Shown piece after piece: positions 1,460 to 37,350 of a stretch of 41,527 nucleotides of DNA. Under the pieces are notes generated by a model that saw nothing but the letters and a program-made list of their open reading frames with translations, was not told the DNA's origin and did not search any database. Location: contig CALSCP010000245.1 of assembly GCA_943704425.1 (NCBI GenBank), positions 50,396 to 91,922 on the forward strand, read 5' to 3'. This DNA comes from Ministeria vibrans ATCC 50519. Its lineage: Eukaryota > Protista > Filasterea. Numbering within the stretch: position 1 is the first letter of the stretch; every line of letters begins with the position of its first letter. The position numbers and the translations under genes are program-made.

Positions 1460-1562
1460 TTTATATCGTGATTTGACGAGAAAAAAAAGTAAAATCTGAA
1501 TCCACAGACTGCTTTACAATGAATAATTATATTTTTTATTAATAGTATTATTATTATTCATT

Positions 1563-4500
1563 TTATTCAATGAGAGTGAAATTGCCTTGCAATGTGCTAA
1601 GATCACTGCTGGGCGCCACAGTGACGAGAACAAGGGTCGGCTCGACAGCCCATTTCCACTGACGATTGAGCACGCGCAAGTCACGTTCGGGTTCAAGGGT
1701 GAAGGTGAGCCGTTGCGACGTGCCAGCGAGAAGGCGAACGCGACGGAAGCCCTTGAGGGCCCGCTGAGGAGTGGTCACGCTCGAGACGACCCGTCGAACG
1801 TACAGTTGGGGGACGTCGTCCGAGTCGCGAGAGCCAATATTGGTCAGCGTAAACGAGATGCTGATTGGTTCGTGAGCGTGTGCGCGCGTCGGTGTAATGG
1901 CCAAGTCGGTGTAAGAAAAGTCCGTGTAAGTCTAAGGTGAAAACGATACAAAAAAATATAAGAATGAATAATGTTATTCATAATATAAAATTTATTAATA
2001 ATAATAATTTATAATATTATACATATGGCTTGTTACCAATCCAAAGCCAAAGGGGTAGAGCGGAAACTGTTCATTCGTGATATCTACGAAAACACGATGA
2101 GCGAACATTCATCATGATGCACAGTGCGTTACAGTTGCTCGAGTGAGAACTGGGCATTGTATCAAAGAACATGGGCAATTGGCCGACGTGCAAGGGCCAG
2201 GTCATGGAGAGACGACCGGCGGGAGAGTAACGACCAAAGAGGACGTCGGCAAGGGCAGTGCCTTGGGCCTGGCCAGGCTTGAACGCTGCAAGGATCGCTG
2301 TGGTGTTAATGGAGGGAGGGAGGGCCACAGGACGACCGGCGAGCAGAACGAGCACAACGGGTGTGCCGGTAGCCAGCAGACGGTCAAGAAGCTGCTGTTG
2401 CCGACCGGGCAGGGTCAGGATGGTGCGGTCGTGTCCTTCGCCGCATGTCTTGGTGTCGTCACCGAGCACAACGACGGCCGCATCGGCACGGGACACAGCC
2501 GAGACGGCCCGCTCCATGCCATGCGCACCGACAAGGTTCCACATGAGAGACGCCGTCGCGTCGCCCGACTGCTTCCAGTACTCCATCACAATGGCATACT
2601 GACGCGTGGCATTGAGCGCAACCGGCTCGGACGTATGCACTCCGCCCGACGCATTCCACGCGTCAATCACCAGACGGCCATCCACGTACAGACGTGCTCC
2701 GCCGTTTCCCGCGTCCACCGCCCATCGTGCATCGTCACACGAGCATGGTGGAGCAACACTAGCACGCCAACGCACACTGAAGACGTTTGCAGTGACATTT
2801 ACAGAGGGACCGTAGAAATAGAAGTGAAAATTGATTTCGCTCTCGGTACGTCTCAAAAGGACCGAGCCCGTCAAATTGGTGTGCGCAAAGTACTCTGCGT
2901 CCACACGTGCATCCTTGTAGTGCCACCGGTGAACAATGGACAGTTCCGAGTCGGTCTGAATGCCTGTGCCGGGCTCATAGCGCAGTGCAATGGACGAGTG
3001 CGATCCACTGAGCAGCGCGGCAACCCCTTGCAGCACCGACGAAGAGTGGCGGTTGTTGATGTCGGCGCCGCCACCCGCATAGTCCCCGAGACGCAGCTCA
3101 TCGGCCGACGGACCCACCAGCACTAGCGATGAAAGCACCGACGCATCGTTGCCACCAATACTACCCTTCATTTCCGACGACAAAGCAAACGGCAAAAAGA
3201 GGTTCTGGTTTTGTAGCAGCACAACGGATTCGCGCGCAGCCCGCTCTGCGAGATCACAGTGGGCCTCGGTGAATACCCGTGCGCTCACCAACCCTTCGTC
3301 CGTCTGTGCCTCTCCTTCATTCAACCCTAGCCGCATCTTTACACGCAGCACATCAGCAACACGCATGTCTACTAGCGATTCGTCCAGCGTCCCATTCCCC
3401 ACCATGTTCACAATCGCCCCTTGGAAATCGTCATGAGAAAAATCATAAAATTGCATATTCCCGCCGGCCTATATTAACGCACGCCACATTTCAACATGAT
3501 GAGAAAGGTGAATCATAATGATAATAAAAACCACAGTAAAGGCACGTGCATACCTGAAGGTACTGTTTGATGGCATCGCCCACAGTGGATGCGACGGCGT
3601 GGACACCGTTGAGCTTGGCGATGGCGCCCAGGTCGCTCAGGACGAACCCTTCAAAGCCAAAGGTGGTGCGCAGCATGTCTGTCAGTGTGAACGAGTCGGC
3701 CGGATTGGGCACGCCGTCCGTCTCGCTGTACGCCGCCATGACACTGAGTGCGCCTGCATCGCGCACGGCCGCCTCAAAGGGTGCCATGAAGACGGAGAGG
3801 AGTTCGCGACGTCCGACGTGCACGGGCGCCGTGTTGCGACCGCCCTCGGGCACTGAGTGCGCCACGTAGTGTTTGGGCTCGCTCACAACAGCGCGCGTGC
3901 TGTTCAGTTGGCCATTCTGTTGCATTCCACTCACCATGGCGATGGCATACTGTGCGTTAAGGTACTCCGACTCGCCGTAGCCCTCTGTGTGCCAAAGTTA
4001 GTGTTCACTAATGGTCGGTTCTTTCTCAATGACGCGCACAGCACCACCCCCACCCCCCCACCCCTAAGTACCTTCAACACGACCCCAGCGGGGCTCGCGC
4101 ATCACGCCGAGCACGGGAGCGAGGCAGAAGTGGATCCCATAGGCGCGCGCCTCGGTCGCTATCGCCTGGCCAATCTCGTGAACCAGCTCGGTGCTGAAAG
4201 CGGCGCCCAGGCCGATGGGAGCTGGAAATACGGTGTGACTGTTCTGCTGATAGCCATGGAGACACTCCTCAATGAATAGGACGGGCGGTTGTCCGTGTTG
4301 CGCGGCGAGTCGTTGAAGTTCGTTTGTGTACGCGGCCGTTGGCGGATAGAAATCATGAATACTCCCCACACCGTCGCGCAGCAGCTGCTCTGCCGCCTTC
4401 ACATCCAAGGCACCGTTGCCATCAAGCAAGTCCGTGCCACGGTACATGTCCAATTGGCGCGCTGAGAGTACGAGTAAGCGCGATCAAAATAATTCAATGA

Positions 4501-4797: not shown

Positions 4798-5904
4798 ATG
4801 TTGAAAGTGTTTGGCAAACTCGGATCGCAGAGTGTCAAGGTACTCCCGTCTGCCCTCCCTGCCGTGTCCCTCAACCAGCTTCTCCCCTAGGGCAACGACA
4901 CACAATACAACGATGCTGTGCGAGCTCACCGGAAACACGAAGCGAACACGGAAAAGCTGAACAAGGTTAAAAAAAAAAAAAAAAATACATTCATCAAACG
5001 AATGTGAAATCACTCTTGTAGGCGGTCAAGACATTTCAGGAGAAGTCTCGGGCTGCGGTGGCCGCATCACAGACACTGGACCACTCGGTTGCAGCGCTCT
5101 TTGAGGTGGTAGGCGACCTTGAAGAGACTGTGGCGACGTCCGTCCAAGAGTACGCCACAGTGTCGGATACGGTGGAGGCAAACGAGAAGGAGCTCGACTC
5201 GTGCTTGCGAACGACCCTGCAGGTGCGCTACATTGCTACATCTCACTCGCCTTTACTCACCTCCCCCCCTTTCTCTATCACTTTGTATCTTTCTCCCTCC
5301 TTTCTCTCTCTCTCTCTCACTCACTTTTGTATCTTTCTCCCTCCTTTCTCTCTCTATCACTTTGTATCTTTCTTTCTCCCTCCTTTCTCTCTCTCTCTCA
5401 CTTTGTATCTTTCTCCCTCCTTTCTCTCTCTCTCTCTCACTCACTTTCTTCCCTTTGCGTGCATCGCAGGAGCCCATGATCCGCTACCAGAAACTGTTTC
5501 CCTCCATCAACGAGACGATCAAACGACGCGAAACCAAATTCAGCGAATTTGAACGCTCACGCGAGAAATTGTCACGGGCACTTCGCGACAAGAACAAAGA
5601 TCCACGCAAGGTGGACCGTAACGAGGCAGCGCTCAAGGCGTCACAGTCGGGCTTTGAAGACATCAACGAAACACTCAAAGCGGAACTGCCCTTTTTTGAT
5701 TCGGTGCGCGCCGACTATTTTGACCCGTGTTTCGCGGCCATGGTGCGACACCAAATTGCTTTTCGCGCACGCAATGTCGCAGCTGTGGACCGAGCGGTTG
5801 ATGCGGCGTTTGCTGAGCCTCTCTGTGACATGGACTTTGAGCAGAGTGTGCGCGACCAACTCGACGAACTCGCGTCCCTCTCCATTGTTGGTGGTCGCAA
5901 GTGA
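4798..5904 (+). CDS. BIN3: N-BAR domain protein, BIN3/Rvs161-like (about 250 aa)
   Basis: Exons 4798-4839, 4891-4965, 5022-5222 and 5470-5904, all phase 0. Amphipathic N-terminus MLKVFGKLG, EPMIRYQKLFPSINETIKRRE, FEDINETLKAELPFF, DYFDPCFAAMVRHQ and terminal LASLSIV match BIN3. Confidence 0.88.
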
Positions 5905-8035: not shown

Positions 8036-8701
8036 CTTTTTTGCTCGCTTCTCCTTTCTCTAACTTCGAGGCGGTTTCTTTCTAGAAAAAATCCCCCGCT
8101 GCACTCTCTATGTGTTCACACACTCTATTCACATCTAATACATTCCTTCCTGTAGGCGGAACCGACATAGATTTCATTCTTTCCGTCGTCGAAATGTACT
8201 GCGACGAAGTCAAAAAATACTTTGCCAGCATGGAAATGGCCCTGTAAGACCCACATGGTCCACCGTGAATCGATATATAGATATCTATATATGTATATGC
8301 CGCTACCACGCGCGTTTACTCACGACCTTCTACTTTTCTCGTGTTGCCCTTTCGCCTTTGTGTCCTCGTTTGTTTTGATTTGCAGTGTTGTGAAGAATAT
8401 CAAACAGTTTGCCCAAAGTGCGCACACCATCAAAGGCTCGGCGGGCGCATCGGGTGCAGACAGAGTATCGAAGGCAGCCGAAGAAGTCAACAAGGCACTA
8501 AGACATGCAACCAACTTTGACGAGACGACGCGTGATTTGAGAAAAGATTTGGACACGCTCTATCGCGAACAGCGCATCTTTGTCAAAGTCTTTCACGCAA
8601 ACAAGGATGACTTCTTGAGTGACGACGAAGATGATGATGATGATGATGATGATGACGACGACGACGACGACGACGATGATGATGATGATGATGATGAGTA
8701 G
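7442..8701 (+). CDS. Histidine phosphotransfer (HPt) protein, Ypd1/RdeA-like, with poly-Asp tail
   Basis: Exons 7442-7592, 8156-8243 and 8386-8701 are phase-consistent. DIDFILSVVEMYCDEVKKYFASMEMAL...FAQSAHTIKGSAGASGADRVSKAAEEV contains the HPt H-x-x-KGS motif (His codon 8423-8425). Confidence 0.9.
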
Positions 8702-8947: not shown

Positions 8948-11900
8948 TCACTCATCGTCTGCTTCAGCCACAATCTTGCGTCGCTTCACCCGACGACCTG
9001 CACCTCGACCCTTGCGACGACTCTCCTGCGCCAACTCTGTCGTGCTGTTCGGAGGCTCCTGTTCATCATTGCTGTCGCCTGCACCGGCCACGCGAGCCAA
9101 ATGTCGCCGTCGTCGCCCTTCTTGCTGTTTTTGTCGTTGTGCTTCCATCTCCGCCTCAACTCGCTCTGCAACTTCCTTTCCTTCATCATCCTCGTCGTCG
9201 TCGTCATCGCCTTCTTCGCCTGCTTCTTCTTCTTCTTCTTCCTCATCCTCCTCCTCCTCCTCCTCCTCCTCTTCTTCTTCTTTCTGCTGCTGCTGCAGCT
9301 GTTGCTGCTGCTGCTTCTTCACCTTCCCCTTCTTTAAGGGCGCTCTGCTCCGCTTTTTCCGCTGCTGCCCACCATCCTCGCCCATCTGATCCTCATCACC
9401 CCGCTCCTCTTCCTCCTCCTCGTCCAACTGCACCACCTGCGACGACACCACTTTGCCCTGCAAATCACGGTGCTTCAAATTGCCACACCAAAATGCCGCA
9501 CGCAAGTGGTGCGCCTCAAGCATTGCCTTGACACGGTAAATGAGCGTCTCCATTGAGCGTTTCACGGCCGGCACACCATTGATCAGTGCAACGTCCCGTA
9601 AGACTTTCGAGTGACCACAAATCGTCTGGAGCGTACGCGTGCCCGTCTGAAGCGTTTTGAAAATGCCGCCAATGGCGTCACGATACGCCACAAAGTGACG
9701 CTCAAGCAGCGGCATCACATTGCGCAGCCACACCTCAACAAATTGTCGGCCGTACTTCATGGCCGCCGACAAGAGACCTTTGGTCTCGCATCGCTTAGTC
9801 AGTCCCATGGCGTCGCGAAAAAGCATCGTGCATGATGACACGAGTACCAAAAGCGCGTCCACATCCAGCTCTTTTTTGACGGCTTTCGTTGTCGTCGTCG
9901 TGGAAATGTCGACGCTTTTCAACGACTCAATCATTTGCTCGAGTACAATGCGATAGCACAAGGGCAACTGTCGCTCAGTGATGGTTGGGAAGACGCGACC
10001 GGCACGTGCGTCTTCGTCGGCCACCAGTGCCACAATGGGACCCTGAAAAAGGGCTGTGGAAGCGTCGAGGGGATCGGACGCAAGAGACACGTGCTGCTTG
10101 AGTAGGTACGACAGATTGTTGGCAAAGGTGCGCGAGTCAGCTGTACCCTCCGCCAATGGTTTGCGCAACATGGCCCCTGCAATGCGACTCACCGCCGACG
10201 CACGTTGTGTATTCATGCCCGTCTTGGTGACCACCAGTGTGAGCAAACGCACCAGCTCCACCGCAAAGGTTGCACTCGGGATCGAGTTGCCCAGCCCCGT
10301 CAGGTAGTCAAAAGCGCCCACAAATATCTCTTGGTCACTGCTCTTGGCCAACGCCAAGTCTGGCACGAGCCGCTTGGCCATGGGCATCAGCAGCGTGCGC
10401 AACAACTCACGACCAGTCGCCAGTTCCACATTCATCTCGGACCAATGCAACAAATCTTCAATGCACTGCAGCAACAGTATGAAGCAGTGATGGCGCACAA
10501 CATTGCTCTCGCGCACCACACGTACATTGTCACCATCACCACCACCAAGGCCACCGCCCGTCGACGGCGACAACGGTAAATTGAGCGAACCCGCATTGTT
10601 ACAGTCATCCTCCTCCTCCTCCGCCTCCTCGGATGCGTAGGCAGTCACAAAGAACTCGAGATGGTCGCAAAAGATGGGGATGAGTGCGAGGATGCGCTTG
10701 GCAACGCGTTCGAGAGGATGCCGCAGCAGGCTCGCGTGACCCGTGGTTGGAGCGTTCGTTGCCACATTTACACTGTTACCAAAGTAGTTGAGGGTAGCAG
10801 AGGCGGGACGCGTAAGCACACGCACAAGTTTGCCATGAAAATCACGCAAGAGAAACTCCATCTCGACACATGACATTCGACAGGTCTCCTGTCGCACCGT
10901 ATCCTCACGTGTGTCCATCTCCTTGGTCGTCAGATGATGGTTTCCGAAATACTGCATTACCACCACCGTGTCAAACTCTAGCTCGCGGAACGCACCGGGC
11001 GCCGTCAGCATCACGTTGCGTGTGCGCCAACTGCTTGCCGCAGTGGCAGTGGAGGTGGCAGCAACAGCTTTGCCCTTGCCCTTGCCCTTACCACCCTTCT
11101 TCTTCTTCTTGTTATCGTCGTCCTCGTCATCTTCGTCGTCTTCGCCGTCATTGTTGTCCGCACTCTCGTGCTCGTCGTCGACCCCGAACGTTCCCGCTGC
11201 CGACGCTGCTGCCGTCCCATTAGGCTTTTTGGATTTGCCACCACCGGTGACGGCAGTGGTGGTGGTGGTGCTCGCTTGCACCGTACCGCCTTCGCCATCG
11301 TCGACGGTGAGAGCAAAGGACGGGCACACGTCCATGGAAGCGGCAAGCATGCGCTCGAGTAAGCACAAGTGAGTCGTGCGCGCGACCAGCTTCAGCTGCG
11401 TCTCGTAGCCCTGTTGCGTGCTAAAAGCATTGATCATCTCAATGATCCAGTTGATGCTGTGCACCAGCGAGTGTGCGAGACGTTCGCGCGAGAGTAAGTC
11501 CCAGCCCGCCAGATGCCGCCGAGTCCACTCGTACACAAGGTCGCCCTGTTCACCGTCGTCGCCGGTGCATCCAAACGATGCCTGCGCTTCGTCAAAGCAC
11601 TCTTGCACCAGCGAGTGCAACTCAATGGGACAACCAAGGAGTGCGTCAATGTCCGTGAGATCGCCCGCCTGGAGCACAAGCGTGCAGCCTTGCAAAAGTT
11701 TCACTTGAGGCGCCAGCGCCACAAGCATGCGCGCGCGACGCGGGTCCATCATGAGGGAGTGAACGCGCAATGTGTGAGTGGCATTGTCGCCGTCCAGGTT
11801 GAGACAAGCCCCATGCGCAGCGGCCGTTGTTGGAACTGCACTGGCGGTTGTTGGGGCAATGTCGGCCGAGCCACTCTCGGCGGCCTCCACGAGAAAGAGT

Positions 11901-13776
11901 TCGGGCAAGGGTTCGCAGAGTGTCTCGTTGATCCAGTTGACAAAGCGTACGTCGAGGCGACCGGCGTTTGTGGCGAGTGCATCGGCAATCACCTGGAAGA
12001 GCTCGTCGTAAAGGAAGGCGCGGCAGGCCGGCGTGTCGCAACTGTCGGTCATGAGACGCAAGAGTGCCACCATCTGCTCGGTGGCCGCGTCGCACATGAA
12101 CTCGGTGGGTTGTGTGGCATCGCTGGCGTTTCGCATGCACATGTGACGCACAACGGCGACTGCACCCACGATACCAATGCGCTTGTAGAGCACCTTGGAG
12201 TGTGCGAGTTGTTTACGAATGAGAATGTGCATGTCATCGGCAATGAGAGACTCGACGGCGTCCGCCGTGCCCTCATGCTGCCTCTCGTGTTGCAAGGGTG
12301 TCTCGGTTGTGGCCGCGAGCTTGGAGAGAATGAGGAAAAGAAGGCGCACCTGAGCCAAGCTCAGGTTGGAGAGGTAGTCGAGGATGCCCTTGATGAACAT
12401 GGTGAAGGGTTTCATAGCCAAGGGCTTGCGCTCGACGAGCGCCTGAAGGACACCCAGCGAGGCGTCCGCCTCGCAACGAATGCCCGAGCCAATGTGCGTC
12501 ACAAGATAGCCCACGACCTCTTGGCGGTAGTAGGCATCGAGGACGAGAAAACTGTTGCGATAAATGGCCGCTGCAAATGGGTGTACCGTTGAGTCGGCAC
12601 AGCGCAAGAGGGACTCGGCAATGGCCATGGCCGTGGAAAAATACTCGCGCGCCGACGTGCCATGAGCATAGAAGAGTTTGCGCAAAAGCGACGCGGTGAG
12701 CTGACCACGACGCACCTTGCGGCGTAGCAGGGTTTCGGCCGCCTTCTTGTGGGGCGCCATATCGTAGAGCATAAAGAGGACAAACACGTCGAGGACCGAG
12801 TGTTCGGCGGCATCCTCGATGGCACCCAGCACCTTAAGCCATGCATCGGCAATGATCTTTTGAAAGCGCATGCCCGAGCGCAAACTGTCCAGTGTGAGTT
12901 TTTCGCCCTCACGCAACGAGCTGGACTTGTCGCGTGCCGTTTGCACGCCAGGCACCTGCGAGCATGCATCGATGCTGGCGCTGTCGGGAGCGGCAGTAGC
13001 AGCGGTAGTGGCAGCGGCGGCTGCTGCGGCGCTGGTTGCCATGGCGTCCAGATCAAGGGTGGTTCGCAGTTGTTGCACAATGGGAATGGCCGTGTCGGCG
13101 GCGGCTGTCTGCAAGAGGAAGCGCACGCACACGGGCAGATCGTCCATGTCAATCGAGGACAAGTGCCCGACGACTGTCTGCCGCACGAGGTCCATGAGAT
13201 CGGCTCGCAAGTTGAGGTTGGAGAGCGCGTCAAGAATGGGGGCCATAAGACGGCTGTTGTCGGCGACAAGATCCTTGAGAAACTCGACAATCTTGTCGTG
13301 TTGACTGTCGTCGACGATCTCAGGAAGACTTGTAATGATCTCGCGCTGAGTCTCGCGCTCCGTCAACTGCAACATGTCAATAAGCTGATCGGCGAGGGCA
13401 GCCGAGTCAAAGACACGGTCAAGCCAACGAAGTTGCGAAATAAGCAAGCGTGGCATGTTGACACCCGTGTCCTCTTCGCAGTCGGGCAGACGTTCAAGGA
13501 GCAGTCGAATAACACCTCCCTGGAGCACCGCCACTCCGAGCAACAGGCGTAACAAACTGTCCATGCCACCTGCGCCGGCCACAGCCACTGCCGACGAGGA
13601 CGACGTGGCACTCGCAGCCGAAACGTACACAGTGGCACCCGCGTCATTTTCGGCCGGCAGAAAGTTAGACTAACCGAAAGAAACAAATTAGTCGAAAGAT
13701 TAGGGAGAAAGATAAAAGTGATTGAGAGAGCGGTACAAAGCGATATAGGAGAAGGGGAGGGAGATAAATACACGTA

Positions 13777-13830
<54 letters not shown>

Positions 13831-14330
13831 TTGTGAGAGGAAGGGGAGATGAGTGTGCGCGCCGTTTTCGAAAACAAAACAAGGCAAAACAATGGTCCTA
13901 CTGGAAGTCCTTGACCGTGCATGTTGTAGTTGGCATTGTTGATGCTGTCGTCGTCGTTGTTAGATGGGTTGTCTGGGAGGTAGGCGATGCGGACTGGCTG
14001 GAGAGCGGCGAGAAGCCAAGAGGCGTTGGATTCGAGGTGAGACGACAGATTTGCCAAAAAAGTGACAACCTGTTCCGACTCGGCGTCCTCTCCGAGCGTC
14101 TGCTGTAGGCTGCGACGGAAGGCAGCGCGATTAGCCGCCGACATGGCCCACACGTAGCAGAGATCGCCGTGGACCGACGGCAAATGCACCAGGTGAAGGC
14201 CAGATTTGGTCAACGGCTCCAAAACGCTTTTCTCGTCCAACGACGGTGCCGCAGCCTTGGTTGTGCCTCGTCCCGCAGCGCCCGTGCCTGCAGGACCCTT
14301 TCCCTTGGCGCCCGTATGCTTTCGAGGCAT
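8948..14330 (-). CDS. FANCD2: Fanconi anemia group D2 protein
   Basis: Two exons (14330-13902, 13669-8948). Motifs MPRLLISQLRWLDRV, QREIITSLPEIVDDSQH and YYRQEVVGYLVTHIGSG. Monoubiquitination site DDMHILIRKQLAHSKVLYKRIGIVGAV (human K561 context). C-terminal AFWCGNLKHRDLQG. Confidence 0.96.
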
Positions 14331-14604
14331 GGTTGAATCTATTTTATGAAAAGCCAAAGCGTGTTTGAGACGAGTTTGAAAAGTAAGAGTGAGCAAAAGA
14401 ACGACGAGTGAGAGAGTGAGAGGGCAGCCGGAGGAGACAACACAACACAACAGAGTAGCGTAGAAAGGTATAAGCAACGAATAAAGGCTCTGCGAAGAAG
14501 AGCGTACGTACCTGAAGAAAAAGTTTGAGTTTTTTTTTTATTCTTTATTATTTTCCGATCGCGTATTAGAAGAATAATAAAATAATATAATTATATTTTT
14601 TCTA
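14331..14604. promoter_or_regulatory. Putative bidirectional promoter between FANCD2 and TFB2
   Basis: 274-bp intergenic region between divergent start codons, with an AT-rich stretch near the TFB2 ATG. Confidence 0.55.
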
Positions 14605-15709
14605 ATGAAAAACTGGAAGGAATACCTGCAGCATCAGCCGACGGCAGCGTTGACAAGATTATTAAACCGCCATGCACTGTGTGGTCTTGCTGTCATGGGC
14701 GCGTGCAGTACGCTTGCGCGCACTCTGTTGATGCGTCTTGTCATTGTCGACGGACCTGTCCCCGTTCCAGCCACGTCGGCCAACTTGAAGGCCCTCGACG
14801 AGCTCGAGACGCTCTCGCTGTGCCACAAACGACAAGTGCGCGCCGGGAAACGCGAAAACAGCAGCGACGGCAGCAGCGACAAGTATTTTGTCGACGTCCA
14901 AGCGACCGACGCGGCACGACGGAGTCTTTTGCGTGCTTTCACGGGCACCGACACACTCTTGGCGGACGCCGCTGTGCCAGGACCTGCCCAGATCAATGCT
15001 GCTGCTAAGGGCCAGCGCGACACCGATGGCGATGTAGTCATGAGGGGAGATGAGACAGCGAGCGAGGACAGTGGCGACGACAAGGGACACCCCAGCACTG
15101 CCGGTGTGTCCTGTGAAACACTTGAGAAGCACGCAAGCGATAGCTGGCAAAAGCTGCTGTTGTTGCTTGTCAACCCCAGCAAGGCGAAGAAAAGCTCCTT
15201 GTCATCGGATCATCTGAGACCACTTCTCAAACGCGTCGGTTTGCTCAGTGAATCGTCTGGCGGCAAAGGCACTCTTGAAATCACCAGCGAAGGCTTTCAG
15301 TTTCTTCTACAAAATCCCTCAGCACAAGCCTGGCACCTCATGGTGATGCATCTGGATATTTTAGAGGTGAGAGCACTAAGCAAGAAGAAGAAACGAAAGA
15401 AAAGACATAGTTTTTGTTTAATTTTTTTTTCTTGGTTTCGTGTAGAATTCAGAAGAGGACCCTCTCGAGCTAACAGCGCTTCTTTGTTTCCTACATCACT
15501 CTATTCTTGGCGAACGCTACGCAGTGTCGGACCTGTCACCGACGCAGCACAATCTGCTGCCGTTTCTGCACGACATTGGACTCGTGTATCACTCGCGACG
15601 ACACACCGGCCCTTACTACTACCCAACGAGTCTGGCCCTTGCTGTGCTCGACGGCGAAGATAAACTCGACCTGTACCACCGTCAACAGCAACAACAACAA
15701 CAACAACAA

Positions 15710-15744
<35 letters not shown>

Positions 15745-16377
15745 CGAGAAGAAGGAGTTTGTCGATGGCTCGTCCCTCACGACTGGTTTTATAGTGCTTG
15801 AAACAAACTTTCGCTTGTGTGCCTTTACCGGTATACACAAAAGTATTCTCATGCAGCTCTCATGTTTTATTGTATTATTCCCACAATAGACTCTGAGCTT
15901 CACATTTCGTTGCTGAGTCTATTTGTGTCGCTGCGCGCCAACTACGGGTTTGTCGTGGTTGGGCAGCTCACACGACGGTCCATCAACGAGGCATTTCGAC
16001 GCGGCATTACCAGCACACAGATTCTGCGCTTTCTTGAGAGCAATGCGCACCCACAGATGCTTGCGCAACAGCCTATTGTGCCCAGTACAGTCAGTGACCA
16101 GATATACCTGTGGGAGCGCGAACGGTCCCGTTTGTCGTTTACGCCTGCGATGCTCTACCGCGACTTTAGTGCGGGCGCCGAGGCCTTTTTGCTTGTGCGC
16201 AACTACGCGCGCGATCTCTCGGTGCTCCTTGCCGAGAGCGATTCGTCTCTGCTTGAGTTGGATATGGATGACGATGAGCAAGGGGCGCGCACCAAGCGCA
16301 GTCAGTTTTACTGTGTCGTTGACAAGGACGCTCATTCGTCCATTAAGGAGTTCTGGAAGGCTAACAAGCCCGTCTAG
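14605..16377 (+). CDS. GTF2H4: General transcription and DNA repair factor TFIIH subunit p52 (Tfb2)
   Basis: Exons 14605-15366, 15446-15830 and 15890-16377. Motifs ITSEGFQFLLQ, YYYPTSLA, GFIVLETNFRLCAFT, LTRRSINEAFRRGITSTQILRFLESNAHPQM and VPSTVSDQIYLWERERSRL. Confidence 0.95.
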
Positions 16378-16546: not shown

Positions 16547-16616
16547 CAATTTTTTTCAAAACTCACTTTAATTTCCGTTTATTTTTACTCCAAGGGGACT
16601 CAGCAAGTCGCTCTCG

Positions 16617-16927
16617 ATGGAAGTTGCACATCCGGCAGTGGGCGAAGAGACGCGGGAGGCGGCGGTGGCGCTGCAACGACAGGCGCCCGACACGGTCGAG
16701 AAATGGAAGCGGCTGCAGAAGCAGGCCTTCACCGGCTGGGCCAACTGCTACCTTCGTGAAGTGTATGCTCCATTGTCTCCTCTCTCACCTGAATTTTTCG
16801 TCGCGAACCTTTTTTTTTATATAATAATATATTTTTTTATTATAGGAACAAAACTATTGACGATTTGTTCACTGACCTTGACGACGGTCTTCTTCTCCAT
16901 GCCCTCTGCGAGACTGCCAGTGGCAAG
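16617..16927 (+). CDS. Filamin/alpha-actinin-type calponin-homology (CH1) actin-binding domain exons; 5' part of the gene that continues across the gap
   Basis: Exons 16617-16762 and 16846-16927 splice to WKRLQKQAFTGWANCYLREVNKTIDDLFTDLDDGLLLHALCETASGK, matching filamin CH1 (WKKIQQNTFTRWCNEHL...LQTDLSDGLRLIALLEVLS). Confidence 0.85.
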
Positions 16928-16999
16928 GTATGACGTGCGCACGCGCCGAGCCCATTTGTGCCAGTGTGTCTTGTCTTACATCTCATCCTGCAATCGCTC

Positions 17000-17189
17000 T
17001 CTCTCTCTCTCTCTGTCTTTCGCGTTGTTTCCTCGCTCTGTCTGTCGGTCTCTCACTTTGTGTCTGTCTCTCTCTCTCCCCTCTCTCTCTTTCTTTGCCT
17101 CTCTCTCTATCACTTTGTTTCTTTCTCCTCTCTCTTCCTCTATCACTTTGTGTGTTTGTGTGTGTGTGTGTCTCTCTCTCTCTATCACT

Positions 17190-17255
<66 letters not shown>

Positions 17256-17381
17256 TTCGCGTTGTTTCCTCGCTCTGTCTGTCGGTCTCTCACTTTGTGT
17301 CTGTCTCTCTCTCTCCCCTCTCTCTCTTTCTTTGCCTCTCTCTCTATCACTTTGTTTCTTTCTCCTCTCTCTTCCTCTATC
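17000..17381 (+). repeat. Intronic CT-rich tandem repeat (about 237-bp period) running into an assembly gap
   Basis: A block of about 130 bp starting tgtctttcgcgttgtttcctcgc occurs at 17014 and again at 17251; the second copy ends at the N-run. Confidence 0.85.
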
Positions 17382-18070
17382 NNNNNNNNNNNNNNNNNNN
17401 NNNNNNNNNNNNNNNNNNNNNNNNNNNNNNNNNNNNNNNNNNNNNNNNNNNNNNNNNNNNNNNNNNNNNNNNNNNNNNNNNNNNNNNNNNNNNNNNNNNN
17501 NNNNNNNNNNNNNNNNNNNNNNNNNNNNNNNNNNNNNNNNNNNNNNNNNNNNNNNNNNNNNNNNNNNNNNNNNNNNNNNNNNNNNNNNNNNNNNNNNNNN
17601 NNNNNNNNNNNNNNNNNNNNNNNNNNNNNNNNNNNNNNNNNNNNNNNNNNNNNNNNNNNNNNNNNNNNNNNNNNNNNNNNNNNNNNNNNNNNNNNNNNNN
17701 NNNNNNNNNNNNNNNNNNNNNNNNNNNNNNNNNNNNNNNNNNNNNNNNNNNNNNNNNNNNNNNNNNNNNNNNNNNNNNNNNNNNNNNNNNNNNNNNNNNN
17801 NNNNNNNNNNNNNNNNNNNNNNNNNNNNNNNNNNNNNNNNNNNNNNNNNNNNNNNNNNNNNNNNNNNNNNNNNNNNNNNNNNNNNNNNNNNNNNNNNNNN
17901 NNNNNNNNNNNNNNNNNNNNNNNNNNNNNNNNNNNNNNNNNNNNNNNNNNNNNNNNNNNNNNNNNNNNNNNNNNNNNNNNNNNNNNNNNNNNNNNNNNNN
18001 NNNNNNNNNNNNNNNNNNNNNNNNNNNNNNNNNNNNNNNNNNNNNNNNNNNNNNNNNNNNNNNNNNNNNN
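17382..18070. other. Assembly gap (N-run) inside the filamin-like gene
   Basis: 689 N bases. Confidence 1.
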
Positions 18071-18133
18071 TTTTTTTTGAACTTTTTTTTTTTTTTTCTT
18101 TTCTTGTTCTTGTTTTTTTTTTTTTTCTTGTAG

Positions 18134-21101
18134 GTGTTGGTGCGTATAGATGCACCCAACAAGGAGTTGGTGGAGGTAGACGTGGTTGATGATGGTCCCG
18201 GTCGCTATGTGGCACATTTCACGCTCACCGAAGCGGGTGTATACAGCTTCTATGTGTCGGCCAATGGTGTGCAGGCGCAAGACTCGCCCGTCTCCAAAAC
18301 CCTTTCACCGACCACTACCTTCACAGCCACCGCTTACCCTTCTTCTACCTCTGCTGAGCCTGTCTCGCCGCTGTTGGTGTCCTCCCAAGTCGATGATGAT
18401 GTTGCGAGTGCACTCGTCACGCCCGAGTCGCCCATTGCGACTGAAACGAACTGCGACCTTCCCACTGCCTCCTCTTCTCCCATTCCTCTAATTTCACCTT
18501 CATCTGTTGTTGCTCGCTTGCGCTGCACCACATCAGGACCGTTAGCGACCGAAGTGTGTTCCTTCACTGCCGTCACGTACCTCGATGATGATGCACAGAC
18601 GCGCGTTGCTAGTGTGCCACTCTGTCTCACTGTACATGACGCCGATGGAGTTGAGCAAAGCATCGTAGACGTTCCCTCACACGACTCCGGTGTACACCGT
18701 TTCTCGTTTACACCACGCCTTGCCGGCGCCTACACTGCCACAGTTGCGGTGGCTGCTGCTACGGTCGATACATCGCACGTGAGCCTTCCAACACCGACGC
18801 TGGTGAACGTGCGTGCTCCTCCACTCTCCTACACGGTTAAGGTGATTCCTGCAAGCACTGAGGCATCGCGTGCCACGTTGCGCATTCGTGCCGTTACCAA
18901 GAACTCGGGCGTTCCCTACTGGGGCAGCATTTCCCTCGTGTGTGTCGATCCGACGGGTCAGCGCAGCTTCATTCAAACGGTGCCAACAGACGACGACTTT
19001 GACTTTGTCAACACTAGTGCATTACACGCGGGTGTGAGTGCCGCCGTGATTCTCGTGCCCCTCAAGGGAACCTACACACTTTGTGTCGAAGAACCTCCCT
19101 CGGTCAGTGGACACGCACGCGCCGAACCGACCATAATCAAAATCGCAACGTTCCATGTCGACCATCAACAGCCCGACGATGATGTGCCATCACCATTGTC
19201 GTCCGCACCTCCATCACCCTCCAAACAATCACATCTACAGCAGCAACAAGAACAACAGTCGCAGCAAGAAGAGAAACGCCGTGTGCTCAGCAGTTCTCGT
19301 CAGGAGCAACAACGATACGGACATGCGTCAGCCGCGTCGTCAGCCACGACCACCGCCGGGTCCTCACGTCGCCAAGTCCGCATGTCTACCATGTCATCCG
19401 CATCGTATCGCAACGACACGGTCAGTCGAGATGCCTTGTACACGACCGACAATGTGGCAAGCGAGGAGATTGGCAACGAAAAGAATCTTCGATATGATGA
19501 GAACGATGATGAGCGGCTCAACCGTGACGATCTGACGCATTCCATTGTGACTGTCACCGAGGCACTCGATCGCTTTGGCTATGGCCGTTTTCAATGGCTC
19601 ATGCTTGCTCTTTGTGGCGCCGGCTACTTTGCAGTGTGTGCCGAACTTCTCTTGTACGTGTTCATTCAGGACCCGTTGAAGGCGCGCTTCCACTTGGGCA
19701 CCTACGACTACGACTGGCTGCCCTTCGCCACGTCCTTGGTGGGTCTGGTCAGCAGTCCGCTGTGGGGTATGCTCAGCGACCGCATTGGACGTCAGCGTCT
19801 TTTTCTGCTGACTGTGCTTATCTCGGGCATTGCTGGCCTCATCTCGGCCTTTTCGCCCGCCTTTTGGTTCTTTGTTCTGATGCGTTGCGTTGTCGCATTG
19901 GGTCTGTCGGGCATTGTCTCCGTAGACTTTGTGCTGTTTCTTGAATTCATTCCAACCAAAAACCGCGCGCGTGCTATGATTCTTATCACCGCCTGTGGCA
20001 CCCTCGGCGTGTTGCTCGTGGCAGGACTCGCGTGGGCGCTCAGCGAGTGGGACAATGGCGACTGGTGGCGCTACCTGACGGGCCTCAGCGCGACACCACT
20101 TTTGCTGGCCGCCCTAGTCCGCTACAAGTGCTCGTACGAGTCTCCACGCTACTTGGTGGCGTGCAGTCGTCGTCAGGAGGCGCGTGACGTTCTTGAACAT
20201 GTGGCCACGATGAACGGCGCGCAACCACTGGGCGCACACGAAGTGCTTGTGGGCGAAGACCAGCCGGCGCGCGGTCGTCTCATGGAGCTTTTCTCCAAGC
20301 GAGACGAGCCTCTGCGACGACGCACCACCGCCTCGCTTTTTGTTATGTGGTTTGCTCTGTCGACGGGCTACTGGGGCGCCACCATGTACCTTCCCGCTTA
20401 CTTTACGGCCGTCAATGTCAATGTCTACGAGACCTTTTTTCTCATGGTTCTGTGCGAAATTCCGGGCCTGCTTGTTGCCATGCACTTTGTCGAGCACCGT
20501 CGCATTGGGCGTGTGGGCACAGTGCGCGCCTTCTTCCTTGGTTCTGCCCTTTTTATGCTCATCTTCGCGGCCGTATCGCGTCCACCGGGTGCTCTCGTCT
20601 TCCTCTCCTGCATGGTCTACTTCTGCGTCACCCCCATCTACGGTGTGCTTTTTGCTCTCTCTCCCGAATGCTATCCCACTCGGCTGCGCTCCACCGCAAC
20701 AGGCGCCATCAATATGGTCATGACGTAAGATTCCGCAAGCCCCAATAATCACACAAAGATGAAAACCCCTAATTTTTTATACGTTTTACAGGATTCCGTC
20801 TCTTGTGACTGCGTTTGCAGGACAAGCACTGATCGACTCGAACATCCGCATTCTTTACCCCCTCGTGTGGGGCTGTTTTTTCGTCCTTGGCTTCGCAGCG
20901 AGTCTCGCTCTTGCCGCCCGCCATGGCATGGACCGTGACCTCGACCGTGCTCGCGTCCGCGGACGCAGTGCCTCGCTGAGTTTTGGCAACACCAATGTGA
21001 GCGAGTGCCCCAGTTACGACGGCGACGATGGTGTCTACAACAGCGCAGAGGCATCCACTCAAGAAGCTCACCAAAATCTTCTCAATCATTCGTTCAGTTA
21101 A
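18134..21101 (+). CDS. Filamin Ig-like repeats fused in frame to an SV2/SVOP-like MFS transporter (12 TM)
   Basis: A single stop-free exon 18134-20724 holds filamin-type repeats (DDGPGRYVAHFTLTEAGVYSFYVSANG.Q..DSP; DSGVHRFSFTPRLAGAYTATV), a S/Q-rich linker, then EALDRFGYGRFQW, motif A LSDRIGRQR, EFIPTKNRAR, ESPRYL and PECYPTRLRSTATG. Exon 20792-21101 supplies the last two TMs. Confidence 0.88.
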
Positions 21102-21356
21102 AATTAATATTAATTGAGAAACGTGTAATAATTATAATAAAAATAAAAATATACGAGTTTGTGCTGTTCTCTCTCACTTTTGTTCTCTCCTTCCTCTCTC
21201 ATTCCTTCTCTTGTTCTCTCTCTCTCTATCACTTTGTTTCTTTCTCCCGCCCTCCCTCCTCTCTCTATCACTTTGTTTCTTTCTCCCTCCCTCCCCTCTC
21301 TCTCCTCTTAGTTAGTCTCTCTTTCTCTATTTGCTTTGTTACTTTCTTCTCTCCTC

Positions 21357-23468
21357 TCAATCACTTTGTGTTTCTTTCTCCTCTCTGTCAAGCCTCTCTC
21401 TCGGCTCTTCTTCCCTATTTTCTTCCAGAAGCGTCACAGTGACGCACAAGGACAGTCCTTCAAGAGTCTGTCGTGCGTCGTGCACGTGAGCCCTATCCAC
21501 TTCCGTCAGCTCGCCCCTGCGCGACAGACTCTCAAGAGTCTGGAGTGCGTCCAGGGCTTTTGCAAATGGGACGCTCACATCGTCGACGTCGTACGCCTGC
21601 GCAAGGGTCAAAAGATCCTTCAGAGTGTCGCTGGTCACTGTCGTATCGTTCGCAAGCGCCGACGCCAGACGACCACACACTTGGCACATAATACGATGGA
21701 CGCTCGCTTGATACACACCGCGCTTGTTCACCTTCTCCTTGTCTTCCATGTCGTCGTCGTCGTCGTCGTCTTCGCACTTGAGCGTCGATCGGTTGGTTGC
21801 AGGACAACGATGGTGCCAGTCAAGGTACCACGCAACGCTCGCCTTGTCCTCACAATGGCGCACCAAAAGCTCGAGCCAGGCGGCGTCGGCCAGGGCGAGC
21901 ACGACGGCATGCCACGACGGCAGAACGACACCCAGCGCGTCAGGCTCAACTTGACGAACGAGTGCGACGAGGTTGTCAAGCGACACGTTCTCGTTGTCCA
22001 TAACTTTACTGGTAATGCGCGTGTGGATGTCGTCGAGAGTTGACGCGAGCGATCGCACCTTGTTTACCAGTGAGTCATCTCCAAGCGTCAAAGGCAATAA
22101 GTCAACCGAGGCAAGCCATCGATCGACGCGAAGGGCCGAGAAGACGTCAGCAGAGTGTGTTTTTGTCGAAATGGACGCCATATCAACCATGTGCCACAGA
22201 TCGTCGTCGGTGATGTCCCGAGACTCAATGACATCGTCGCACGTCAGCCGTACCTGCAGCGCAGTCACAGCCTCCTCGACTCGGAGCAACACCTCACCTC
22301 GAGCGCGCCACTTGGAAATCGCGCTCAGCATCAATCGCACTTGCTTGACCTCTTTGAGGGGTTCACCCAGGGCAGATGAACGCACCAGCAACGCCTCGAA
22401 CTCGGCCGGACTCGGCTTGATAATGGTGGGGAGGTTGCTGGCTGCGGACGAGCGCGCAAGCAACTTGTTCAATTCGTCCACCCATGCGTCAACGGGACGA
22501 GCGTGGTCGGCAAGAAGCGACAACATGCGCGCGAGTTCGTCCTTGTCGTAGCGATAGAGCATGGTCCACTCCGAAAGAGGACATGCTCCACAGTGATCCG
22601 TGTAGGGCTTGTCGGAGTTGGTGGGTATGGCGTGGCGCATGCACACAAAGACATCGGGCTTGCAGGCGCAGTGGAGCGCCGACAAAAAGTAGGTGGTGTG
22701 ACAGAGATTGCACTGGCGCTGATCGTCGTTGAGACGCTCGGCGGCGACGCGTGCGGTGGCGCGGATGCCGTCCTTGGCGGCGAGCACTAAGGCACGTCGC
22801 TGCGCGTCCTGGATACACACCTGGGAGAACTCATCGCGACAGGCACGCGCAATGGCAGGCGTGGTCTTTTCGACACCGGTGGCGACGCTGCACAGGAGCT
22901 CTTCGTGACTGAAGACGAGGTGGCGGCCGTCGCGAGAGTAGGCTGAGACGCTCTCGCGACCAAATGGCAACCAGTCGGCCGGTGCAAAGTTGACGGCTTC
23001 GGCGACGTTGAAGCCGTTGTTAAAGCCGGCGTGGTAGGCACGCGGGAAAGTGACGATAAACTCGCCAGCGTGCTGGTCGGTGCGCACGACAGGAATACCC
23101 TTCTCCATGAGAAGAGTAGGCGAAATGAGAGTGGTCAGTTGGTACAGCAGCTGGGGGTTCCGGTCAAAGAGCTCGGGCACCGTCTCGCGCACAACTCGTT
23201 CAAATGCATTTGCATGCACATCGGAAATGCCGTACCACGTCTTGGGTGCGCCCGTATGGTTGTAGTTGATCGAGTAGGACCAGTGGTCTTCGGTGTGCCA
23301 ACAGAAGGCCGAGAAACACATGCCCACATACACCCAAGGTACCATCATTCCACTGATATTGCCATTCACATGCTTCAGCAGCGACCCATCCAGTGTCGCC
23401 ATGCGGTTCAAATTCCACGCCGACGACTGAAAAGAAGAATAATAAATAAATAATAATAAATATAATTA

Positions 23469-23514
<46 letters not shown>

Positions 23515-24062
23515 TCTTTTTCTGTTTGTTACCCAACAAGACTCGTCGTCGTCGTCGCTTTTGCCGCCATTGTTGTCACATGGGAAGCCACTGCCATGCT
23601 TGACAGTGTGCAAGTCCGCGCCGTACTCCACATTACCCACCACTTCATCGTCAAGCTCCTCCGAACCGCTCGCCAAGCGCCAGAAATGTCGCTCAATCTC
23701 GGCGGTAGGCACAGTATCAAATGTCCTGAAAAAGTGGCGCTTGAAGCGATCGTCTTTGGCTTTGAACGACCGCAGTGTGTACGTGCGCTCGCCCGAACTG
23801 AAGCCGTACACGGACGGCGGTAGACTCTCGCTGGGCGTGAGTTCAAGCAAAGTCACTCGCGAACTTCCACTACCGGTGCTGCCTGGACGGCATGCCGAAC
23901 AGCACCATTCTGCGCGTGGCATTCGTCCCAGGGGAGGATGCAGGCATCGTAAGTGAAAGAATCGCATGCAACGCTCGCAAAACTACGTAATATCATGATT
24001 AATAACATAATAATTCGTGTTAAACAGGGAAAGGGGCGAAAAACACGCACACACATGCACAT

Positions 24063-24143
<81 letters not shown>

Positions 24144-25349
24144 TTCGTACAATCATGTCAGTCGCATCACCAGGACCCGCACACTCTTCGCAATAGCCCA
24201 TAGCCTCGTCGTTGCCTGTCCTGACGTCGTCCTTGCGTAATCTCTTTGCGGCGGGCCCCTCAACTTCCTCTTTCACCTTGCTGCTTTTGTTGTGGTTGTC
24301 GGGCTCGGTGTCCATCTCCTCCTCCTTCTTGATCGTGCTGTGTGTGTCGTTGGCAGTGGTGGCGTTTGCGTCAAGGTTGGCCAGGTGCGAATCCCGCTTG
24401 AGCGATAATAATGATGATGATGATGCTGATGATGGTGCTGATGATGATGGTGCCAATGCTGATGCTGATGGTGTTGATGCTAATGGAAACGGTTCGGTTG
24501 TGGCAATGTCGGGCTGGGTGACGGCGGTGGTGATCGGTTGTGACGGAGACGAGTCACCATCACGAAATTTGGCAAAGTAGGCGTCTCCCTTGACTTTGCG
24601 CTCGTACGTCTCGTAGGGCAATAGATAGCGCTCGTAACGGGCGCGAATTTTCAAGTAATCGGAGCGAGCGACTAGACACGAATGGTGTGTGAGAATCAAA
24701 AGGGGAACGAACACACAAGACAAAAGAGGGAAAATGTGAAATATGGAACGAGAAAACGTATCGTTCAGACCCAGCCAGACACGGGTGAGAGCAATAAGAA
24801 CAGATTAAGAAAAGAGGTGGGCGGTGAGGGGGCTTGCTGTACCGTCTGCGTTGAAGCCAAGGTGCCTCATGACAGAGGCCCATTCGCGCTGTCTGGTCAC
24901 ACTGTTGAAACCGCCGAGTTGGCGGACGCGCGAGTAGAGGGCGTACAAGTCGATGACTTGACCCAAGAGAGTCGGTGCGTAGCGAAAGGGACGGCCGTGC
25001 AGCGCACAGATCTTTTGAACGGCCGCGACGAAATCGAGACGGACGCGCGACTGCCCTTCGAGCTCAGCGAGATGCTGAATGCGCGTCTGGAAACGGAACT
25101 TGTCCCAGCTAATGCAAAAGGGCGGGTTCCACGACTTGGGCGGTACAATCTTGCAAATGCCCGCCACCTGAGCGCGCTCTCTGGGACAAGGGAGAGGTCA
25201 AAAAAAAAAAAAAATCGAGTTGACTTGTGAGTTTATCATAAGACGAGAACGACTTACCTAATTGAGTCGATGTAGCTCAGTGGATTGGCAAATTCTTCTT
25301 CGGTTGGAAAGAAGACGGGTGCTTCGGGGGGTCGTACAAACGTCGACAT
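21357..25349 (-). CDS. KDM5: Lysine-specific histone H3K4 demethylase KDM5/JARID1 (JmjN, ARID, PHD, JmjC, C5HC2 zinc finger, degenerate PLU-1)
   Basis: JmjN EAPVFFPTEEEFANPLSYI...GICKIVPP; ARID IDLYALYSRVRQLGGF..VT..REW...LKIRARYERYL; PHD ...FHLRCLHPPLGRMPRAEWCCSAC; VEYGADL; JmjC [25 protein letters not shown]...QHAGEFIVTFPRAYHAGFN with Fe ligands intact; C5HC2 RQCNLCHTTYFLSALHCAC...CMRH. Exact 3' end uncertain. Confidence 0.95.
24065..24140 (+). repeat. (CA)n microsatellite in KDM5 intron
   Basis: Perfect CA run. Confidence 0.95.
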
Positions 25350-25607
25350 GAGAAAAGGAACTATATAAAACTAAGAAAGTGTGTGAAGTGTGATTGTTCT
25401 GTGAGTACACTCTTTCTCAGTCATGTAAATGTTAAGTCGTTAACGAAAACCAGCCAACAAAGAACACCATTGCCCCGTGGGCCGTGGGCTTTGAAGAAAG
25501 TGGAGATGAGCATGTGATGAGCATATAGTTTTATTCAACCCACATTCAACCCTTTAGTCTTTACTCTTTAGTCAAACCATTTTATTATTTTTCTTTTGCC
25601 TCTGTCG
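25350..25607. promoter_or_regulatory. Putative bidirectional promoter between KDM5 and FGD, with clustered short direct repeats
   Basis: 258-bp divergent intergenic region containing ccgtggg x2, gatgagcat x2, attcaaccc x2 and ctttagtc x2. Confidence 0.5.
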
Positions 25608-33456
<7,849 letters not shown>

Positions 33457-35766: not shown

Positions 35767-37350
35767 CTATACAAGGGAGGTCTTGCGGCGGAGCAGGCGA
35801 CGGGAATCGCCGGTACAAGAGCGCTGGTGGATTTCGACGCGGGAGGCATCGCTAAAGCCTCGTCCACATCGGTCGCAGGGGACACGGTTGCCAAGGAAGG
35901 CAGCGAAGGCGGTGTCGTTGGCGCTGGCAAGCGAGGACGACGACGACGACGATGGACCTGTAGTTGTTGTGGAGTGGGGGTGGGTAGGGGCGGGCGGAGG
36001 GGCGCGGTTGTGCTCACGTGTGTACTTGGCCTGACACTGTGGAATGTGCAATGGTAGCGATGCAGAGCCATAGGGACGACCGCAGAGGTAGCACAGATGG
36101 CCAATGGCCGAGGAAGAAGGGGAACTTGTCTGAGGTCTTTTCGTAATGGGCGTCTTGGCAATGGTCGGGAGGGATGGTGTTGCATTGGGTGCAATGTGTG
36201 GACGAGTGAGTGTCTTATCCTGCCCTTGGGCCGAGGGAAGCGTTGCGGTGCTGGGCCGATCAGGAGTAGTATTAGTAGTAGTAGTAGTAGTAGTACTTGT
36301 AGTAGTAGTAGTAGTAGTAGCCGCGGTGGGCTTTGGGCCTTTGCAGCTGCGCTGGTGGACGGAAAGGCGTTCGGCAGAGGCAAAGCCGCGGGAGCAAAGC
36401 GGACAGGGGATGCGATTGGCCATGTACTGCGCAAACGCAGTGTCGTTGAGCTCGTGTTGTGTCTGTCCTCCGGCTGTGCTGGCACCAATGGGTCGCTCCG
36501 ACATCAAGCCGCGCGTCGGTTGGTCGTCAGTGGTGAGTCCAGGGACTTCGGGAAATGTGCGTCGCATTTCCGCGGGCAAATGTTCTTGTTCGCGTGCCCA
36601 TTTTTGGCGACAGTGAGGCAAATGGAGACGTAGCGAGGTCGTGCCATAGTTGCGACAACATCCGGGACAGAGCAGGCCCGCCGGACCGGAAGCAAAGCGT
36701 CGTTGGCGTGGGGATGTCGACCGCGGACGTACGGGTGGCGGCGTCTCGGTCGCGGGTGAGGTCTGTGCCAGTGGCTCGAGTGTCACGGCCCTCCCTCGAG
36801 AAGTACACGTAGAGCTAGTAGTGAGTGCATCAGCTGTTTTTGGACGGTTCATTGTGCTTGCGCTCCGTTTTGCCGAGAGACGTGGAGCAAGTTTGGCGGG
36901 ATTCGATGCTAGAAGAATTAATAAGAATAATAAAATTATTAACTTATTGTGAGTGTCATTGACAAATATGACAACTGCAGTTGGCTTGGTTGAGTACCGG
37001 TGCAGCTGCGTTGATGAACAGAGAGTCTCTCGGTGGCAAACGTGCGGCCGCAGTGCTCGCACGGTGCAAGTGCTTCGTTGTACGACTCGAAAGCAATATC
37101 GGCAAGCGCCGCGGTTGTCGGCTTCAGACCACGCTCCAAAGCGACTTCTTCTGGAGGACGTGGGAGCGGTCTTCTCTGGTGTTTTGGCAGACGAAGCTGC
37201 TCGCTAAAAGGCACATCACGTCCGTGAAAATCGTCACCATAGCAACGAATCGAAGTACATTTCAAATTTGCGCACACACTGCTTCAAATGTATATCAATA
37301 GATGCCTTGGAATAGTTGCGTCCACACACATGGCATATTACGATGCCTTT
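35767..37350 (-). CDS. ZNF474-like protein with three pairs of C2HC/C3H-type zinc fingers; 5' end at assembly gap
   Basis: Fingers CHVCGRNYSKASIDIHLKQC, PCEHCGRTFATERLSVHQRSC, CPGCCRNYGTTSLRLHLPHC, PCPLCSRGFASAERLSVHQRSC, CYLCGRPYGSASLPLHIPQC and PCDRCGRGFSDASRVEIHQRSC; two phase-consistent introns. A possible start ATG-GGG lies just across the 10-N gap (about 37371). Confidence 0.9.

Follow-up and report, generated by a model that had tools for sequence, protein, structure and literature searches.

A filamin-type CH-Ig arm and an SV2/SVOP-like MFS transporter encoded by one spliced gene of Ministeria vibrans

Gene organization and main finding

The window analysed is a stretch of 41,527 nt from Ministeria vibrans ATCC 50519 (contig CALSCP010000245.1, positions 50,396 to 91,922), and coordinates are counted from its first letter. 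Its + strand carries, at 16617-21101, a single spliced gene that joins filamin-type modules to an intact MFS transporter, in the order CH1 - (CH2, presumed) - linker - three Ig repeats - S/Q linker - MFS with 12 transmembrane (TM) segments. The predicted product has 76 + 289 + 966 = 1,331 aa. The domain fusion is real and transcribed, and it is apparently undescribed. The interpretation somewhat favoured here is a lineage-restricted fusion giving one membrane protein of 1,331 residues, which would tether a working small-solute transporter to F-actin.

Transcript and genomic contigs

Twenty-one sequencing runs are listed, six of which contain at least half of the words; four runs were compared on 18125-21165 and four on 16560-16985. 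No run is recorded as RNA, and three (X1, X4 and X5) are treated as RNA-derived because their contigs skip introns. A contig of 4056 nt in X1 (depth 137.1) and one of 4119 nt in X4 (depth 47.9), both runs of study P1, match 18134-20724 without difference or gap, skip a 67-nt intron and extend beyond the stop codon. In the same two runs the CH exons are covered by contigs of the same length and depth as the Ig-MFS part, with an 83-nt intron skipped. Both GT..AG introns are removed and exon 2 is left at its donor, so these contigs are spliced. From 16927 to 18134 each of them carries 867 nt, a length of exactly 289 codons, and the visible ends of this middle part are open in the same frame (TTQRKINRTP after exon 2, RPREEAGADD before 18134). 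Run X5, from a different study, has the identical exit from exon 2 and two short contigs at 19130-19360 and 19347-19526, the second of which spans the Met at 19382. Run X6, which carries another organism label and has a word share of 0.30, was compared on the CH exons only, where it has no contigs.

The sequence-only reading had proposed one CH-Ig-MFS gene, with the CH-to-Ig link crossing a run of 689 N. The run of N is present at 17382-18070, and one spliced contig in each of X1 and X4 crosses it in frame with the 867 nt. The assembly gap is under-sized, as at least 867 nt of exonic sequence must sit inside it.

A mis-assembly, or a contig chimera of two neighbouring genes, could be suspected from the genome gap within the gene and from the capacity of short-read contigs to merge overlapping transcripts. 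However, the DNA run X19 has one unbroken contig over 18125-20328, intron bases included, so that an assembly error at the Ig-MFS junction can be dismissed. DNA and RNA contigs are identical base for base over this junction, no stop codon or intergenic-like DNA separates the halves, and the CH-Ig link is made by in-frame splicing. Mis-assembly of the junction is accordingly rejected, and an artefact of any of these kinds is extremely improbable. An intron at 19170-19380, which would have separated the two halves, was also looked for and none was found in the RNA-derived contigs, which run through the linker unjointed; a linker intron in the major transcript form is rejected. The features of the gene are as follows.

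16589..16616, + strand: 5' untranslated part; the RNA contig of X4 starts at 16589, and an in-frame stop lies upstream of the ATG
16617..16762, + strand: exon 1, with start codon, a 28-residue leader without signal peptide, and the first helix of a CH1 of filamin/alpha-actinin type
16763..16845, + strand: intron 1, 83 nt, GT..AG; joint 16762->16846 in X1 and X4
16846..16927, + strand: exon 2, CH1 continued (Pfam CH positions 22-43); X1, X4 and X5 exit at 16927 with an identical in-frame loose end
16928..18133, + strand: intron sequence (CT microsatellite) and the 689-N gap, concealing 867 nt of exonic sequence (289 codons)
Presumed content of 16928..18133, + strand: remaining CH1, probably CH2 and linker, first part of Ig repeat 1
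18134..18319, + strand: the large exon begins here, with the C-terminal half of filamin Ig repeat 1 (Pfam Filamin; PDB 1wlh)
18320..18490, + strand: insert of about 57 residues rich in S, T and P; disorder is predicted from its sequence and a pLDDT of 31-51
18491..18817, + strand: putative divergent filamin Ig repeat 2 (Pfam Filamin below cut-off; filamin-C match)
18818..19174, + strand: third domain, rich in beta strands in a low-confidence model and possibly an Ig repeat that has degenerated
19175..19555, + strand: linker rich in S, Q and acidic residues, about 127 residues long, with Met codons in frame at 19382 and 19391 (GC 0.50-0.57; unjointed in RNA contigs)
19556..20724, + strand: SV2/SVOP-like MFS transporter, TM1 to TM11 (Pfam, alignment, model and structure match)
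20725..20791, + strand: last intron, 67 nt, GT..AG; joint 20724->20792 in X1 and X4
20792..21101, + strand: last exon, with the end of TM11, TM12, cytosolic tail and stop codon (spliced contigs; match to the C-terminal part of homologues, BLAST covering the query to position 447)

The actin-binding part

The upstream exons had been read as two exons of a filamin-type CH1 domain, and their common register agrees with this. Taken one by one they are weak (Pfam CH E 0.008; PDB E 0.03-3), the matches of exon 1 being the actin-binding domain (ABD) of filamin-A (E 0.03) and also alpha-actinins and filamin-B. In filamin-B chain 2wa5, residues 16-34 align to exon 1 residues 29-47 and residues 37-62 to exon 2. 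After splicing, an offset of 13 is common to both exons, gap-free, a register that chance would not easily give, and both exons stand on the spliced contig that also carries the Ig-MFS part. The first 47 or so of the 109 CH positions are visible, and they are those of an N-terminal CH1 of the tandem actin-binding type. By profile positions, about 62 residues of the unseen middle would finish CH1 and about 39 would begin Ig repeat 1, leaving about 188. A CH1 of this type nearly always precedes a CH2, and the remaining residues probably hold CH2 and a linker, as suggested by their length and the type of CH1.

The large frame of 864 codons without stop, which had been claimed from the sequence, is present at 18134-20728. 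It opens with the second half of a filamin repeat: large-frame residues 3-53 match Pfam Filamin above the cut-off (E 2e-10; profile positions 42-92), as expected for a rod of filamin Ig repeats. Scanned alone, repeat 1 gives Pfam Filamin at E 6e-8 and, as its top PDB match, the Dictyostelium gelation factor 1wlh (E 1e-7), which hints at an amoeboid protist but falls short of showing one. Repeat 2 gives Pfam Filamin at E 0.004, below the cut-off, and filamin-C at E 0.04, while repeat 3, scanned alone, gives neither a Filamin nor a PDB match. The earlier count of two or three repeats was thus fair: by sequence similarity repeat 1 is firm, repeat 2 weak and repeat 3 unverified. In the ESM Atlas, which covers large clusters only, residues 1-350 fall with filamin-repeat clusters (0.90-0.91). 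A single-sequence fold of the Ig region is of low confidence (pLDDT 48); Foldseek with this model returns tandem beta-sandwich proteins, which are not used as evidence, and a homodimer prediction for Ig 2-3 scores 0.00, evidence for neither outcome.

The linker and a possible internal start

Over 18134-19560 the other two + frames contain 13 and 21 stops, and the probability of 475 stop-free codons is about 6e-8 from base composition. The linker has a GC content of 0.50-0.57, compared with 0.22-0.36 in local introns and intergenic DNA, and an AATAAA-like poly(A) signal is absent from it. There is no stop between the halves, so that two separate genes would require a non-stop upstream mRNA. When a codon score was trained on exons of three neighbours' coding sequence and applied to nine segments, it ranked the expected frame first in every segment, by a tie-level margin in 19175-19381 (-0.22 vs -0.23).

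An additional internal start of the MFS part at Met 19382, giving a shorter MFS-only product, is possible. Carried further, the gene could be a recent and near-neutral fusion whose working products are separate, the MFS being released through this Met or by cleavage of the linker, and the filamin part being a passenger or a free actin-binding piece. Met 19382 is a plausible ancestral N-terminus, about 55 residues ahead of the MFS homology, where relatives have a median N-terminal extension of about 20, and the codon score rises past it (0.33 vs -0.22 before). The divergence of Ig repeats 2 and 3 and the lack of the fusion in all 151 relatives compared (best 150 matches and P0002) point the same way. 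Against separate products, the large exon has no AT-rich promoter- or terminator-like stretch (the lowest 60-nt window has a GC of 0.42), each run gives a single unbranched contig, and the 1.4-kb frame ahead of the MFS is open while the other frames are rich in stops. In addition, the identity of the MFS and of CH1 to their relatives reaches about 40% at most, which does not suggest a fresh accident. Separate products are therefore doubtful, if a real possibility.

The transporter

Pfam finds MFS_1 at residues 503-863 of the large frame (E 1e-30) and Sugar_tr at 529-858. The nearest named relative is a Mercenaria 'synaptic vesicle 2-related protein-like' (40% identity, E 7e-83). A 17-row alignment has 17 invariant columns, and the MFS keeps every one, among them motif A, the TM4 Arg and a PESPR-like motif; the invariant columns of an 84-row alignment are likewise all kept. 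The residues concerned are G83/D87/G90/R91, R122, E142/R149, E207/P209 and R390 (motif A, TM4 Arg, E-x6-R loops, PESPR-like). A model of TM1-11 from the 84-row alignment has a pLDDT of 95, and TM12 is encoded in the spliced last exon; the fold is the two-bundle MFS fold of 12 TM segments. Its best structure match is human SV2A (TM-score 0.87), followed by OCT, OAT and URAT1. With TIGR00898 it scores 191 bits (last exon excluded); two relatives that stand alone reach 209 and 194. A quick tree was built from 71 rows, using the best 70 of 114 near-full-length matches among the 151; the end branch of this MFS measures 0.98 in it, and the median is 0.87. The group into which it falls there has 28 rows and an SH-aLRT of 100 (rooted by midpoint only), and its other members include proteins of molluscs, cnidarians, sponges and Perkinsus. 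A Planoprotostelium protein named SV2-related (P0040) lies in a different group of this tree, and the rows include no verified SVOP.

The label 'SV2/SVOP-type' given by the sequence-only reading holds as a likeness, from the Mercenaria and SV2A matches, and fails as membership of SV2. The SV2 model TIGR01299 gives 63 bits against a cut-off of 637, in the N-terminal half only, the TM7-8 loop is short in the model, and the large luminal domain of SV2 is lacking; SV2 membership is rejected. Nicotinate transport is known for SVOP/NiaP, and the role of SV2/SVOP-like carriers is still poorly defined. Since the family motifs are kept, the fold is SV2A-like and the branch length is normal, the MFS is predicted to be, probably, a functional carrier for small organic solutes.

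The protein might instead be mainly a membrane anchor or cross-linker for actin, with the MFS as an embedded foot or dimerising unit and transport lost or secondary. Filamins organise cortical actin and link membrane proteins to it (excerpt of PMC8305917), and TM1 keeps only the Glu of the Asp-x-x-Glu pair found in other SVOP-like rows. However, stand-alone members of the clade have the same change in TM1, and motifs, profile score and branch length are like those of ordinary relatives. A degenerate MFS is rejected on these three grounds, the earlier suggestion of an MFS fold used merely as an anchor is disfavoured, and such a role is unlikely. At positions 20329 and 20340, X19 shows two alleles at about equal depth, and X5 carries the other allele. 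One difference is synonymous and the other changes Phe to Cys near TM7, which suggests a diploid organism.

Distribution

A homologue search over 1.84 billion representatives gave 10,223 matches at E <=0.001. The best 150 all align best on the MFS part, with a top identity among them of 43%. None of the 151 MFS homologues (these 150 and P0002) has an Ig or CH match at E <=1, and Pfam finds neither CH nor Filamin in 20 long or top matches or in the 10 matches of a second search. Word-indexed searches gave no match for residues 1-350 among 7,995 candidates of 475-1512 aa and none for exon 1 among 4 candidates, the latter few and a weak test. In metagenome scans, none of 573 pattern matches for the large frame and none of 595 for exon 1 was confirmed. 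With the whole frame, the ESM Atlas returns plain MFS clusters only. The organism's own protein was also missed by these searches, so close relatives may simply be absent from the libraries; the fusion appears unseen elsewhere, short of proof that it is unique. By title and the start of the abstract, the CH-Ig-MFS architecture is undescribed in the searchable literature, a scope that leaves aside subscription journals, InterPro architecture tables and supplements, and it could yet appear among the domain tables of a genome paper.

Comparison with known systems

Dictyostelium filamin (ddFLN, ABP-120, gelation factor; PDB 1wlh, 1qfh), which is closest to repeat 1 of the fusion (E 1e-7), and the vertebrate filamins likewise begin with an ABD of CH1 type followed by Ig repeats. 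In contrast to these, the fusion shows about three repeats, two of them diverged, with a low-complexity insert, and ends in a 12-TM transporter and not in the known dimerisation repeat of the filamins, which are soluble dimers. Filamins cross-link actin through dimerising (excerpt of PMC8305917). The term 'cross-linker', applied to the gene on first reading, is unsupported: with a transporter at the C-terminus in place of the dimerisation repeat, actin cross-linking is not implied.

The SV2/SVOP-like carriers (SLC22-related) share the common 12-TM MFS fold. These relatives are stand-alone proteins, mostly of 440-560 aa, whereas the fusion has about 830 additional N-terminal residues and is without the SV2 luminal domain. 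The myosin-motor chitin synthases (Ustilago Mcs1, Aspergillus CsmA) likewise combine an actin-binding module and a polytopic membrane protein in one chain, and the myosin-17 domain of Mcs1 tethers vesicles to F-actin (excerpt of PMC3252574). They differ in joining a myosin head to an enzyme and not a CH-Ig arm to a solute carrier, there is no homology, and their fusion is conserved across fungi while the present one is seen in one organism. Filamin A binds NCC in trans, linking the carrier to actin and affecting its abundance and activity (extract of PMC8698651). That link is non-covalent and regulated, in contrast to the CH-Ig-MFS link, which is hard-wired in one chain. Overall, CH-Ig-MFS belongs with a known kind of protein, in which a cytoskeleton-binding module is joined to a polytopic membrane protein.

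Proposed function

In MFS proteins both termini are cytosolic, and the first exon encodes no signal peptide; the CH-Ig arm would therefore lie in the cytosol. CH1 and the presumed CH2 would bind actin filaments along their side, with the Ig repeats and the flexible linker of 127 residues as a spacer, and the 12-TM carrier would move a small organic solute by alternating access. In this way the carrier would be kept at the cell cortex or on an actin-coated compartment (vesicle, phagosome or vacuole). The gene probably originated within this lineage, when a truncated filamin gene became joined to an MFS gene that had stood alone. Transporters are usually tied to actin via separate adaptors (filamin, ERM proteins, ankyrin), and the fusion would be a covalent form of the link that filamin A provides in trans to transporters and channels. 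With the balance of probability slightly on its side, this may be the first solute carrier to include its own actin-binding arm of filamin type, placing uptake or efflux where membranes are rich in actin (cortex, phagocytic cup, vacuole), with transport possibly under cytoskeletal control.

Mechanical regulation, which the sequence-only reading gave as a possibility, is unsupported, and a carrier or transceptor in which actin tension acting through the Ig repeats alters the transport cycle is very unlikely. Filamin Ig repeats are force-sensitive in animals and the arm would enter immediately before TM1, but a disordered linker of about 127 residues and the S/T/P insert would slacken any pull.

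Several points weigh against a tethered working carrier. The single polypeptide, actin binding and transport are all predicted. The end-to-end link comes from two runs of one study (P1), and short-read contigs omit minor isoforms and show neither starts nor levels nor single-molecule continuity. With 30 nt read at each end, 807 of the 867 nt of the middle part are unseen, so that CH2 and a stop-free frame there are presumed, and by length two further Ig repeats would fit the 188 or so residues as well as CH2 and a linker. Ig repeats 2 and 3 are diverged, and in linker segment 19175-19381 the codon score does not favour the frame (-0.22 vs -0.23). Finally, the searches turned up no second species with the fusion, and signs that selection acts on the fusion as such are therefore lacking.

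A natural covalent tether of this kind would be a Rosetta-stone case, suggesting that SV2/SVOP-like carriers gain from attachment to actin. As a single-gene system, it would allow tethering to be separated from transport by deleting one half. The weight of this argument is limited, as the fusion has so far been seen in one organism and its product is predicted only.

Other genes of the window

The window is gene-dense; its introns are short and of GT..AG type, and it contains CT microsatellites. FANCD2 and Tfb2 are arranged head to head (8948-16377), Tfb2 ending about 240 nt before the ATG of the fusion gene, and a KDM5-type demethylase gene (21357-24800) converges on its 3' end. Further upstream are a GH3 glycosidase with a PA14 insert (1560-4480, - strand), a BAR-domain gene (5022-5904, + strand) and a stand-alone Hpt-domain gene with an acidic tail (8171-8701, + strand; two-component signalling). 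Downstream, a large proline-rich RhoGEF-FYVE-PH gene, FGD/frabin-like (25572-33456, + strand), contains a long tandem repeat rich in PET at about 27900-28650, and 35767-37203 (- strand) encodes a repeated zf-C2HC protein.

An apparently single-exon SMODS nucleotidyltransferase gene lies at 39524-40351 (+ strand; Pfam SMODS E 5e-11). It matches the CBASS oligonucleotide cyclase model NF041117 at E 4e-33 with 115 bits, below the cut-off of 200, and by similarity may possibly be a CD-NTase/OAS-like immune enzyme or a horizontal transfer. Between a 10-N gap and this gene is a low-GC open reading frame of 306 codons (37652-38572, - strand), with a predicted membrane segment and no Pfam match.

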